A stretch of 64,000 bases of DNA from the NCBI RefSeq assembly GCF_003018255.1, contig NZ_CP027441.1; one strand, 5' to 3'. This DNA is from Escherichia coli (GTDB lineage: Bacteria > Pseudomonadota > Gammaproteobacteria > Enterobacterales > Enterobacteriaceae). The stretch's first letter is position 1. Each line of letters opens with the position of its first letter. Of the stretch, positions 54,001 through 60,000 are shown one piece after another. The position numbers are program-made.

Positions 54001-57000
54001 ATGAATCTATTAGAATGTTGCGATCAGGTTCTTTTCTATCAAGAACAACCATTTTCTATTCCATATTGTTTTAAAAACAAATCAAAAAAATACTATCCAG
54101 ATTTACTCATTGCGACAGTTGATGGTCGGTGCCTACTTATGGAAGTGAAGCCAACAGACCGAATGACCTTGAGTCTCACGAGAATAAAAAGTAATGCAGG
54201 TCGCAAATGGGCACATACTCGAGGATGGGGATGGTTGGTCATTAGTGATAGGTTCTCGTTACGTCAGCTGGAAGAACATGCCATCTCAACAAACACATGG
54301 AAACTTATAGAGGCTGAACTGAAAACATCAAGGATTTTAGCATGGCGTGAAATGATGGAGTTACGTACACGATACGAGATTCATCGTTTAGATCTTATTG
54401 CATATATCATTCAGTCTGGTGCTGAAGTGGATAACTTTTATCGAATTACCCCGAAAATATCTAATAATACATCTAACCAGAGACAACCAAATGAGAGCAA
54501 CTGTCATAATTGATGACGCACAGGACGGAAAAAATAATAGCTGCCGGACAGCAGCAACCAGCAGTCGTCCGGTAAAAAAGACAAACAAGGCGCATTGAGG
54601 TCAGCCTTCGCAACAATCCGGCGGCAGATGTCCTGCCGCCGTGTTGCCCGTTAACGTTTAACTTCGTAGGCTAACGTTGCCACAAGCACTGTGTTTCCCT
54701 GCTCGACACGGAATCCGCAAAGCGAATCCCTCACCATCCAGACAAAACACAGTATCGTCACACAGACGACAATTAACATTGTTAAAAACGTTCGTTGTGG
54801 CATCGCAGCCCCTCCATTGCCTTTCGGCCGTCATCGGGCTACTATAATGTTGTCGATGCATTACAGTAGAGCCCTGGGTTGATTGATAAAAAAATCGCCT
54901 GGGGCTTTCTGCTGCATGCCGTCCACAAAACGCTTTCAGCATACAGCCTCAAGCGCCCGCCGCTATTCTAATCGATTTTCAGTCTGCCACAATCGGTTTC
55001 CACCTAATGACATGTAATGCACAACAGTATTTTTACGGGAAACTACACGGCAAGGACTCCCGGAACACGTTCATTATTTTATGGTTACAGACATCATGTT
55101 AAATCCGGAAGTAATAATGACCTGAAAGGAAATACTATGAGTAACGAATATCAAAGCACCAGTATAAACCCTGATGTTTTTGAACAATTTCTTACCCTCC
55201 TGAATACACACTGTAAATCATCAGAAGCTGCACTTGCTATGCTGAGTACACTCTGCTACGAACTGATGAGGAGGAGTGGGATCCATTCACTGGACAGCCT
55301 GATGCTCAACGGAGAAGGTATATTGATACAATTACAGGGGGCTGATATTCGCGAAAAAACAGGTCAGCATATTCACTGATCCAGGGATGTGCTGAAAACA
55401 GTGTCAGCCTGAAATAAACGCTCAATGCCTCATACACATGGGGCATTGAGCACGGTCATCAATAATCTTTATTATTTTTCTGATTCAACATTTCCGGTCA
55501 GTATCGGCTCTTCTGGCAAAGACAGTACCGGAACGTCACGTTCACCATTGAATACAAAAACACTTTCAGCGAAATCATTCTGTAACAAAGAAAAACTTAA
55601 CGGCAGATTTTTAGTTTGTATCCCTGTGAGCCATTGAAAAATCTCGGGAAAACGACGTGCACTGATATGCACATGATTGAGGTGGTGCTCAGTAATATCA
55701 CTGGCCATCATCATGAGAGGCACATCGTATCCCGAACGCAAACCTGGCGCATGATGCACAGGGGTGCTGTCTGAACTGACGGATTGCCCATGATCAGAAA
55801 AATACAGCATGGCAAAATCATCACCATGCTCTGTCGTCATGTTATAAATTGCCTGAAGAAACCGATCCAGTTTAAGCAGTGTTGATAAATAACAGGATAC
55901 TTTATGTCCGAATAATTCCCTGAATGGCTGTGCATCATTAAAAAGTCGGTCACAGGGATTAGTGTGAGACCCCAGCATATGAATAAAAATCACTTTTGGA
56001 GAAGACGAGTTAACAGCTTCCCTGACATACTGAAGCATATCCTCATCATCAATGCGAAGGGAAGAAGAGCTCCCTTCCTTAAGAAAATGTTTTTTATCCG
56101 CATTGGCGGCGATGACAGAAATCAGCGTATCATGTTGCCCTAAAGAGCCCTGATTTGATATCCACCACGTCTCATACCCGGCTTTTCTGGCAAGCGTAAC
56201 AATATTATTACCCGGATTACCTGTTTCAGTGTAATCAAGCGTCAGTGTTCTGCTGAGTGAACCTATCGTATTCGGCGCTGCTGAGAAATACCCATTAATA
56301 AATATACCCGGAGCAGAATTCAGCCATGGTGTTGTCGGCAAAGGATACCCATAAACAGAAAGATAATCCCGTCGGACACTTTCACCAATTACGATAATTA
56401 TGGTTTTATATTTCTTCTCCACACTCACAATATCCCATGAGTCTTTCTGATTGTTTTTCAGCGATTCATATCGCATCATTTCTTCTCTGGTTTCAGCTAT
56501 CCCTGTCATTACATTCGTAACCATACGTTTTGGCCATGCATTTACTGACAATACGATAAAGAACAACAGAAAGATAAATCCCCGGTGGCTTTTATCACGC
56601 TTACGCCAGAACCAGAATGTAAAAGCAGCAATGACCAGCGAAACAATAAAATAAAGAACAGGTATGCCTGTGATAAACTCACCTGCCTCATTTATATTTG
56701 TCTGCATTACAGACGCAATAAAACTGTTGTTTATTTTCCCGTAAATCATCCCAACCGGAGCATAGCATGCACTTAACAAAAGAAAGATACAGACACACGT
56801 TGCTGAAATAACATTCCGCCGCCCCAACAACATCATCAGGAACAATATAAGCACATTCCCCAGGGCGTTTTTCACTGTATATCCGCAGCACCATGTAACA
56901 AGTACAGAAAACAACAGATAAATCAGTGACTCTTTACACCACAACATAAAATAAAACTGTTTTGCTCTCTCAAAAGCATATTTTGACTTTTCTTTAATAC

Positions 57001-60000
57001 AAGACACGCCGGTCATTTTCCTGTACAAACACAGACGATCATTTCAACGCATGGATATTTATATGAAACAGTTCACAAAAATACCCTACCCTGTTCAGCA
57101 ACATTGACATATTATCAGATTCTGTGTTTACAGCAACTGCTCTCCGGACCAGATTATTCACATAACCCGATGAATGACTCATCATCATGATGAGTCTCAG
57201 CATTCATTTAGTTAACAAAAATATTTCTTGCCTTCCCGGAAAGACAAACATACGAAAGAGAAAGCATGGCTATAATAATATCAATCAAAATATTCTCAAT
57301 CTTTCCGGTTGTCATACACTCAGCACCGACAACATAAAGACAATAAACAAAAGTGATAGCATAGTGCGATATATAAAGGAGATGAATGGCCAGAAGTAAT
57401 TTTCCTACCACTCTTTTTCGTTTAAAGAAGGAATAAATGAAGAGCAAACATAACCCTGACAGAAAAAGAAAGGTAGCAATGGAGATTATAAAATACTCCG
57501 TCACCTGTGAATCCTCTTCCAGAGATGAATACAGCGAATAATATGTGGTTGTGAGATTAAGTCTTGTTATCAATATATAAACAACTGATAATAGTATAAT
57601 ATAAAGAATCAGACCAAATCTGTTTTTCTGCGCTCCGGTTAATACTTCTGATTTATCTCGCATAAAATATCCTGTCTGTAATCTGTCCCGGTCAACAACA
57701 GTAAACGTCAGAATCAGTACGAATACGGTAACAAAGATTCCTCCTGTGCGTTAAAGTGCACAGGCAGAAACCAGTCTGGTGGTTCCGGTCAGGGAGTCTG
57801 ATACCTCAACTTCCCGGGTGACTATAACCATACCTGACTGACGCAGTCTCTGCACATCAGCGGCAATTCGCTGAGTTCCCGGCCAGAACAGGCCATCCAG
57901 TGCCGTTACCAGCAACCCGCTTTCCAGCGCCAGTTTCAGCCGTGCCGTCGGGGCTTTAACCTGCCCGGAAATATCAGTAAAACAACGCGTCGTCATGCCA
58001 TAGCAGTCCAGCCGCCGTATTCGCGTCGCAAGACTGTAGCTGAAACAATCCGGCACGCCGGATAAGTCATTCCGCAGACTGTATACACATCCCCGCTGCC
58101 GCCCGTTGAACAGGGCTTTTTTCTGGCTGAGTAGCCATTCCCGACGCAGAGTGTCAATCATCTGCGGTGTCCGGGTTAACAGCAGACGAAACGGCAGCTC
58201 AAAACTGGTCACATCATCAACATTCAGTAATGCTGTCCGCAGTCGCTCCCTGGCTCCAGCCCTGGTCTCCCGGCATTCACGCATGACATAAGCCCACTGA
58301 CGCATCAGTCGTGGAGACTCATTCCTCGCCCTGAACTGATATTTCTCAATATGATAATCAATACGTTCCTGCATATCGCCACCAGATATCTGTTGTTTAC
58401 CCAGACACAGTTATTAGCCTACAGGAATAAATATCCTCCGTGAAGTCAGGTGCCTCAGAAGATAAAAACATGTATTTTTTCAACGCGTAATATTAACGTC
58501 ATCCCCATAAAAATAAATCAGGAAAATATAAAATGATAAAATATATATTCGCACTCACTCTTCTGCTTTCCGGTTCTGTCTGTGCCGTTCAAATTCAGGG
58601 ACTCGTTATTCGTGTGCTGGACGGTGATGCTCTGGAGATATTACAGGCCCGGCACCCCGTGAGGATTCGTCTTGTTAATATTGATGCACCGGAAAAGAAA
58701 CAGCCTTTTGGGCGCAGGTCAATGAATCAACTTAAAAGCCTTGTGGTAAATACGCCCGTAACCGTGACATACACACAGACAGACCGCTACGGGCGTATTC
58801 CTGGACGGGTATATACCGAAGACGGCATGGAAGTTAACCGCTGGCTGGTACAGCATGGTGCAGCCTGGGTATATCCTGATTTCAACACAGATTACACCCT
58901 GCCGGTATACCAGAGATAGGTCAGAACAATGAAGCGGGGTCTGTGAGCAGATAAAAAACCTGTTCCTCCATGGCTGTGGCGAAAAGAAAATAAAAAATGA
59001 CCGCACAGAATTACAAATAAAAAACATCTTGGCGTAATATATATTTTCTCTGCTCCATTATTTTCCCTGTTTACAGTCAGCAAAAAACGCCCGAAGCAAA
59101 ACAAACACGAATAATAAACCTGCCCGATGCATCCATTACAAAAATGAATCCTTCCTCTTATGGAAAATACAGTAACCACAATGAAAAATAAACAGATAAA
59201 GATGATACTTATCTCACAAGGAAAAGCACTGGTGAAAACATAAGGCTCACTTAACTTTTTCACCCTGTAGAATCTTATTTTTTCATGGACATGTTATTTT
59301 GTTGATTTTAAAATATCAAAATGAGTGAATGTATCACATCACTCATAAAGTGGATATTATCACGAAACAATCTATTAAATAGCAGATACAACATGAATAA
59401 AATTTACTCACTAAAATATAGTAGCCTTACTGGTGGGCTTATAGCTGTATCAGAGTTAAGTAAAAAAGTTAAAGGAAAAACAGGCAGAAAATTAATGACT
59501 GCTTCCGTTGCTTTATCTGTGAGTCTTTCAGCCTTACCCGTAGAGGCATCAACGGTCAGCGCTGAAATACCATATCAGACTTTCCGTGATTTTGCTGAAA
59601 ATAAAGGCGTATTTACACCTGGTGCAACCGGAATTGAAATAAAAGACAAAAATGGAAACCTGACTGGCGTTCTCAATACCCCCATGCTTGACTTCTCCAG
59701 TTTGTCTCGAGATGGTCATACGACGCTGATTCATCCTGGCTATGGTGTTTCTGCAAAACATGGGAGATTGCAGAGTCTTAAGACAGCCACCTTTGGTTAT
59801 AATGCCGAATATAAAATAGTTAATAACAATCATGCATCATATGATTTCACAGCTCCACGATATAGTAAATTAGTAACAGAAGTTATTCCAGTTAACACTG
59901 GAGATGGGAAATATAACGACAGTAAAAAATATACGGCATTTTATAGAGCTGGGGTTGGTGACCAGTATATAAAGGATAAGAAAGGGAATCATACACTCCT

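Follow-up and report, generated by a model that had tools for sequence, protein, structure and literature searches.

A YjgX-lineage phosphoethanolamine transferase and a DUF2569 membrane protein in a variable cassette of a pO113-type Escherichia coli plasmid

We analysed a 64,000-nucleotide stretch of Escherichia coli plasmid DNA (contig NZ_CP027441.1, assembly GCF_003018255.1; hereafter the window), which carries a two-gene cassette of about 2.4 kb (55378-57778) made up of a putative phosphoethanolamine (PEtN) transferase gene, a gene for a DUF2569-family membrane protein and their flanks. In the open reading frame (ORF) listing of the window, the maximal transferase ORF starts from a TTG codon and covers positions 55472-57028 of the minus strand (518 aa). 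The ATG at 57016, yielding a protein of 514 aa (55472-57016), is likely to be the true start, and we prefer it because AGGA precedes it and because, in the alignment, a 71%-identical homologue (P0002) begins at the same residue; the RefSeq start is a GTG at 57007, yielding 511 aa. Upstream, on the same strand, lies the DUF2569 gene (57208-57663, 151 aa). An earlier note on this DNA had described the 518-aa ORF as AT-rich and as co-oriented with the 151-aa ORF, and both statements hold: the two ORFs are listed on the minus strand and are both AT-rich, with GC contents of 0.41 (transferase) and 0.34 (DUF2569 gene), versus 0.54 for positions 1-51000 of the window, the transfer-region part. The transferase gene is already annotated and belongs to a well-known enzyme family, of which its own subfamily is uncharacterised.

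Pfam searches located a Sulfatase domain (PF00884, E=7.3e-38) at residues 208-469 of the transferase and an EptA_B_N domain (PF08019, E=2.9e-6) at residues 61-158. An AlphaFold2 (AF2) model, built from a 34-sequence family alignment, reached a mean pLDDT (predicted local distance difference test) of 85.9 and shows N-terminal helices spanning residues 4-188 followed by an alpha/beta domain of the alkaline-phosphatase fold; the predicted layout is one of membrane helices in the N-terminal ~190 residues and a periplasmic sulfatase-fold domain at residues ~200-470. When searched with Foldseek, the model matched the periplasmic domain of E. coli EptC (EcEptC, 6a82) with E=1.7e-19 and a template-modelling (TM) score of 0.74, and also aligned to the full-length structures of NmEptA and MCR-1. 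Taken together, the domain matches and the predicted fold lie far beyond chance.

The active site is intact. Specifically, all seven of the MCR-1 residues E246, T285, H390, H395, D465, H466 and H478 have identical counterparts in the transferase, with the catalytic residues being E212, T250, H346, H351, D408, H409 and H422 in the 514-aa numbering (in the 518-aa numbering, E216, T254, H355, D412, H413 and H426 correspond to MCR-1 E246, T285, H395, D465, H466 and H478). The zinc-ligand and threonine nucleophile positions are invariant in the 34-sequence alignment, and the donor-site pair T112/E116 of MCR-1 is kept in the membrane domain as T106 and E110 (514-aa numbering). The earlier note had assigned the protein to the PEtN transferases from its polytopic N-terminus and from the C-terminal sulfatase-fold motifs GESVRRDY, HMLGSHTNP and LYFSDHGQ; the three motifs are all found in the translation, and the Pfam domains and the active site agree with this assignment. 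By its predicted fold, N-terminal domain, zinc ligands and nucleophile, the protein is a member of the PEtN-transferase superfamily (Pfam Sulfatase plus EptA_B_N). In addition, the ratio of nonsynonymous to synonymous substitution rates (dN/dS) between plasmid alleles is 0.15-0.21, up to a dS of ~0.9, which denotes purifying selection. Therefore, considering the fold, the conserved catalytic residues and the dN/dS values, the copy in the window very probably encodes a working PEtN transferase.

The placement among EptA, EptB, EptC, OpgE, MCR and YhbX that the earlier note had proposed as a check was carried out using as references the E. coli K-12 paralogues, MCR-1, Lpt-O, the CptA-like protein of pO157 and database homologues. 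In BLASTP comparisons OpgE (YbiP) gave the highest score among the E. coli paralogues (227 bits, 30.2% identity over 490 aa, E 2e-70), followed by EptC (112 bits), the pO157 CptA-like protein (108 bits), YhbX (91 bits), EptA (58 bits), EptB (50 bits) and MCR-1 (50 bits, ~22% identity), while no match to Lpt-O was returned. By these scores OpgE is both the closest E. coli paralogue and the closest characterised enzyme. In a neighbour-joining tree of 65 sequences (475 columns, 100 bootstraps; without Lpt3, PetG and PptA), the transferase, its plasmid alleles and a family of ~50% identity form a 14-sequence clade with 100% bootstrap support; this clade groups first with the one that contains OpgE (76%) and then with YhbX (61%), with EptA/EptB/MCR-1 and EptC placed elsewhere. 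The placement thus led to the OpgE/YjgX lineage, not to the lipid A clade. The transferase resembles OpgE in size, architecture and the hydrophobic or neutral residues found at the positions equivalent to MCR-1 K333 and E468 (L and Q in the transferase; in OpgE and YhbX, too, these residues are neither K nor E). It is nevertheless a paralogue and not an OpgE orthologue, belonging to a separate clade borne on mobile elements, and it is accompanied by a DUF2569 partner, in contrast to the monocistronic opgE.

The NCBIfam models point in the same direction. The MCR-1 to MCR-8 models scored 17-28 bits on the transferase against cutoffs of 1100-1250, the EptA models 49-76 bits against 561-660 and the CptA models 110 bits against 404 and 101 against 900; the EptB model also fell far short of its cutoff. 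With MCR-1 and EptA the protein has in common the superfamily, the fold, the zinc site, the threonine nucleophile and a polytopic N-terminus with the T/E pair, and MCR-1 is likewise plasmid-borne and adjoins a small membrane-protein gene (pap2). However, at ~22% identity and 50 bits these enzymes lie in another clade, and the partner of the transferase belongs to DUF2569, not to PAP2 or DgkA.

Some other identities were tried and rejected. The transferase is not Lpt-O, since the Lpt-O of pSFxv_2 has no BLASTP similarity to it. As regards P. mirabilis EptC (Lpt6 class), PMI3104 was retrieved via a published primer (PMC4013655), and the partial sequence obtained showed no similarity to the transferase (E=0.99); a Proteus match with 31% identity to the transferase (H32) lacks the eptC primer sites and is OpgE-like, being 36% identical to OpgE and 45% identical to a Photorhabdus group, versus the 75-77% expected for PMI3104. 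PLSDB lists among its plasmids the Proteus mirabilis H110 record NZ_OL790812.1, which at 4.09 Mb is chromosome-sized; the OpgE-like gene of this record (L026:5923-8683) has after it a 354-aa ORF of glycosyltransferase-like appearance on reading. The 6.7-kb ColE1-type E. coli plasmid pYUXYEH3934-3 carries at 2854-4494 of locus L012 (plus strand) a 546-aa ORF for a PEtN transferase that falls in the OpgE superclade (H33), 28% identical to our transferase and starting with an MNQINQ repeat, of which RefSeq annotates the last 388 aa only; its identification as lpt-O was rejected, as the published lpt-O primers do not match.

The nearest relatives of the transferase are island-borne YjgX proteins, with 48-53% identity and 100% bootstrap monophyly, and on this tree the transferase belongs to the YjgX subfamily, sister to OpgE. 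Among 5426 complete E. coli genomes searched at the DNA level for distant matches, 113 carried both genes of the pair in full, and ~2500 more gave a 66-69% nucleotide match. In BL21(DE3), this match is a frameshifted PEtN transferase pseudogene directly after tRNA-Leu (leuX) and an integrase, a locus that we take to be that of K-12 yjgX in the KpLE2 element. Intact copies of 499-500 aa occur in pheV- or leuX-type E. coli islands and in one Salmonella island, each adjoining a gene for a 242-246-aa outer membrane protein (OMP) beta-barrel. Overall, the subfamily has a chromosomal copy in about half of the complete E. coli genomes, many of them pseudogenes, and is present on more than 100 sequenced plasmids.

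The YjgX island proteins are likewise found on mobile DNA and likewise uncharacterised, with a pseudogene in the leuX/KpLE2 island of K-12 and intact copies in pheV, selC and pheU islands. They differ from the plasmid form in being chromosomal, in lying beside tRNA-island integrases and in having an OMP partner instead of DUF2569. In the chromosomal loci inspected (L017:5542-7941, L002:7113-9500, L019:6054-8503 and L016:5423-6606) the OMP beta-barrel gene precedes the YjgX-type paralogue, just inside the leuX or pheV tRNA-island integrase; in one paper, a gene of islands of this type bears the annotation pagN. The literature treats yjgX only as a pseudogene or a site of integration, as a mutant recovered as a false positive in a defensin screen (PMC4808223), and as a recurrent passenger of selC, pheU and pheV islands in Shiga toxin-producing strains of E. 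coli (STEC) that are negative for the locus of enterocyte effacement (PMC6174562), and reports neither an acceptor nor biochemistry. Elsewhere, in E. coli, Salmonella, Erwinia and others, family members, the more distant ones included, stand as single genes whose neighbourhoods are unrelated, and no lipopolysaccharide (LPS) or O-antigen cluster was present in the neighbourhoods examined, which argues for a conserved acceptor.

The limits of the cassette emerge from a comparison with pOV-CH82 (L028), an IncK2/Z plasmid with an empty site. In a blastn alignment with the window, homology ends at 55377 and restarts at 57779, the flanks being collinear, and neither of the cassette genes is present in pOV-CH82. 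The equivalent cassette of the IncK2/Z plasmid pJKHS006_1 (L025) is a clean insertion between positions 6445 and 6473 of the pOV-CH82 locus. In pJKHS006_1 the gene order is kept, with 72% identity for the transferase, 55% for the DUF2569 protein and 87% for the flanking 207-aa protein. In pECOED, a commensal IncK2/Z plasmid, the block between excA and trbA contains hok, an 80-aa ORF, the transferase gene, the DUF2569 gene, a 207-aa ECs1377-family gene and a thermonuclease gene, and no epeA; window positions 54583-58998 are 92.5% identical to this block, and the window adds 52742-54582 and everything from 58999 onwards, which includes epeA. In IncI-complex plasmids the cassette is thus found or missing at a single site, between excA and trbA, and it is old enough to have split into two allelic forms of deep divergence. 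Since both genes are gained and lost together, in two deep alleles, we treat the ~2.4 kb as a unit cassette.

The upstream membrane partner named in the earlier note therefore has a stronger basis than adjacency: the two genes occur together in pECOED and pJKHS006_1, both are missing from pOV-CH82, and the pairing survives deep divergence, so that the partnership is real. The plasmid location is borne out as well, because window positions 55000-58000 match the E. coli plasmid NZ_CP027372.1 at 100% identity and pO113 at 99.8%, both conjugative and typed as IncFIB plus IncI-gamma/K1; the host of the cassette is a pO113-type IncFIB/IncI-gamma STEC plasmid. The description of the gene as island-borne has to be corrected: the cassette forms a variable insert within the transfer region of IncI-complex plasmids and occurs also in commensal IncK2/Z plasmids that lack epeA, and the link to a virulence island does not hold. 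A connection with EpeA was likewise rejected, since the cassette occurs without epeA and epeA DNA starts only past 58998 (~58999). The cassette is accessory cargo that the plasmids can do without, and it bears no relation to epeA, its neighbour. Its ends show neither terminal repeats nor target duplications that would convincingly mark a transposon, and PADLOC returned no match for its genes, so that membership of a defence system was rejected.

As for expression, the transferase and DUF2569 genes may be co-transcribed. The 191-nt spacer between them (57017-57207, minus strand) has no terminator-like site. Downstream, 20 nt past the transferase stop, lies a terminator-like hairpin (55420-55451, minus strand; 14-nt arms, 93% complementary as an inverted repeat, and a 4-nt loop), followed on the minus strand by GTTTATTT. 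Hairpin and GTTTATTT probably terminate the transcription unit of the cassette; we infer this function, because the simple terminator scan did not list the site. The promoter and terminator scan gave counts at chance level. The region of the 207-aa gene could supply a promoter. This gene (57751-58374, minus strand, GC 0.54) lies upstream of the cassette in the same orientation and is of the ECs1377 family (NCBIfam NF052300, 277.7 bits versus a cutoff of 190; also phrog_24243); it is kept with or without the cassette and belongs to the backbone. In pJKHS006_1 an insertion sequence, IS1, sits in the spacer between the two genes, and thus co-transcription is not obligatory.

The 151-aa partner matches Pfam DUF2569 (PF10754) weakly, with E=3.9e-7 at residues 18-150, and RefSeq uses the same name. 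Its AF2 model is a four-helix bundle (pLDDT 70), for which the fold search returned no structural neighbour at E<=0.001. The gene has a dN/dS of ~0.27 in the comparison with pECOED. A role as a DgkA- or PAP2-like lipid-recycling enzyme was rejected, being without Pfam, NCBIfam or fold support. The pairing with a transferase is not universal: the YjgX paralogues have the OMP gene as their partner, and in Pantoea a distant DUF2569 gene (34% identical) lies without a transferase beside it.

Other features surround the cassette. A Hok/Gef type I toxin gene (54651-54803, minus strand) lies between excA and the cassette and is the only part of the region common, at ~91% identity, to well over 1000 other plasmids. 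The segment 52742-54582, absent from pECOED and present in other IncK2/Z plasmids, contains a 528-aa ORF (52927-54513, plus strand) in which a sigma-70 region-4-like helix-turn-helix (residues ~130-200) is fused to a TnsA-like endonuclease N-terminal domain (~330-440). On the other side, the thermonuclease-family gene (58533-58998, plus strand) is a shorter ORF of 128 aa, versus 155 aa in pECOED, with two stops before 58998. In pJKHS006_1 the 10-nt sequence GTGACAAAAA occurs near both cassette ends (junctions near 6722 and 10040 in reverse-complement coordinates), which may be due to chance.

All together, these data favour, with a probability that we put at roughly 55%, a transferase whose acceptor would be a conserved envelope or periplasmic glycan other than lipid A. 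The earlier note was right in holding that the substrate cannot be read from the sequence. As a tentative candidate, we place the osmoregulated periplasmic glucans (OPGs) in the lead, because OpgE, for which OPG PEtN transferase activity was demonstrated experimentally (PMC3818809) and which constitutes class IX of the 11 classes into which PEtN transferases are sorted by acceptor (PMC10525099), is the only characterised close relative. According to this proposal, the transferase would reside in the inner membrane with its catalytic domain facing the periplasm. The membrane domain and the periplasmic helices would bind phosphatidylethanolamine, the presumed donor lipid, through T106 and E110, by analogy with EptA/MCR-1 and OpgE. 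Thr250, on a zinc site formed by E212, D408 and H409, would then take the phosphoethanolamine, with release of diacylglycerol, and hand it to a hydroxyl of the putative glycan acceptor.

Several points weigh against the proposal of a conserved non-lipid-A glycan. The host E. coli keeps opgE, and hence a different acceptor is quite possible; moreover, at 30% identity to OpgE the transferase forms a clade of its own, in a neighbour-joining tree that has 76% support at the key node and leaves out Lpt3, PetG and PptA. The L/Q pair at the positions of MCR-1 K333/E468 is an observed correlation and at most a putative determinant of specificity. In addition, the literature offers no biochemical data on any YjgX-family member, the promoter scan was at chance level, and IS1 parts the two genes in one plasmid.

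A possible target of a different kind is a surface glycan, be it the outer core of LPS, the O-antigen or the enterobacterial common antigen, whose decoration would mask the receptors of phages or of the PilV adhesins of conjugative thin pili in an exclusion-like manner. In every plasmid examined the cassette lies in the transfer region, a few small genes from the surface-exclusion gene excA, and R64-type PilV adhesins recognise LPS core disaccharides (PMC10654706). This position counts for little, however, because the region collects varied cargo (hok, nuclease, TnsA-like ORF and epeA), and the receptors known for PilV are disaccharides of neutral sugars, for which no involvement of PEtN has been reported (PMC10654706). 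A precedent does exist in Lpt-O (Opt) of Shigella flexneri pSFxv_2, a plasmid-borne O-antigen PEtN transferase that changes the surface glycan (PMC3458804); yet Lpt-O has an LTA-synthase-family annotation and falls outside the clade of all the other PEtN transferases of the tree. Considering also that the chromosomal family members sit in tRNA islands unrelated to conjugation, and that no defence match was obtained, we regard this target as unlikely. We hold as highly unlikely the more elaborate version in which the DUF2569 protein and the transferase would form a conjugation-linked envelope-remodelling module of IncI-complex plasmids, masking PilV or phage receptors alongside ExcA, with DUF2569 as specificity or lipid-handling subunit. 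Modification of a protein acceptor, such as a plasmid pilin or an outer membrane protein, appears extremely unlikely: PEtN transferases of this kind exist in Neisseria (PptA, pilin) and Campylobacter (EptC, FlgG) (PMC10525099) and the chromosomal YjgX paralogues are consistently paired with the OMP gene, but the match to CjEptC is weak (8.6e-5), and the plasmid version lacks the OMP partner and has no tie to pil genes.

The earlier note raised lipid A as an acceptor that would matter for polymyxin susceptibility; modification of lipid A or of inner-core Kdo/heptose phosphates, as by EptA/MCR, EptB or EptC, would make the envelope less negative and increase resistance to polymyxins and cationic peptides. 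The shared superfamily, fold and catalytic residues of MCR-1 and EptA are consistent with such an activity, and EptC/CptA is the second-best characterised match (NCBIfam 110 bits; PDB 5zzu, 1e-22). STEC virulence plasmids are also known to carry LPS-modifying PEtN transferases, among them the CptA-like gene of the pO157 ecf operon. The latter is orthologous to EptC/CptA and shares its operon with genes for a polysaccharide deacetylase and a GT4 glycosyltransferase, and its 27.6% identity to our transferase refers to the catalytic domain alone; on the pO157-type plasmid pZ1815-1 (L013:285-4023) the CptA/EptC-like gene lies downstream of the deacetylase and GT4 genes and, beside our transferase, makes a second, unrelated case of such an enzyme on an STEC virulence plasmid. 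Against lipid A or the inner core stand the MCR and EptA scores far under the cutoffs, with every family test failed, the different clade and the loss of the K333/E468 equivalents, and AMRFinderPlus (PLSDB tables) flags epeA and not the transferase. Although the cassette occurs in 113 of 5426 E. coli genomes, our literature search found no link to colistin resistance; searches on pO113 or IncK plasmids with PEtN transferase, on DUF2569 and on ybiP/yhbX with colistin found nothing functional. The false-positive outcome of the K-12 yjgX mutant in the defensin screen goes in the same direction, though the K-12 copy is a pseudogene. We therefore consider this acceptor quite unlikely, and meaningful polymyxin resistance is not expected from the cassette. 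Alternatively, the gene might be a relic that hitch-hikes and no longer functions: inactivated versions are found repeatedly (an IS1 within the gene in H150, an IS3 truncation, the truncated protein clusters P0004 and P0005), yjgX is pseudogenised in K-12 and BL21, and related plasmids lack the cassette altogether. The window copy, however, is intact with all its catalytic residues, and dN/dS stays low across alleles up to dS ~0.9, which makes a relic very unlikely.

In conclusion, a mobile PEtN transferase on the conjugative plasmid of a human pathogen raises the question of cryptic colistin resistance, which the evidence presented here makes unlikely, an outcome that is useful to anyone screening genomes for mcr-like genes. 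Were the acceptor a surface glycan, sensitivity to phages or to serum, or mating, could be influenced by the cassette. Together with its DUF2569 gene, the cassette offers a compact construct for finding the acceptor of the YjgX subfamily.

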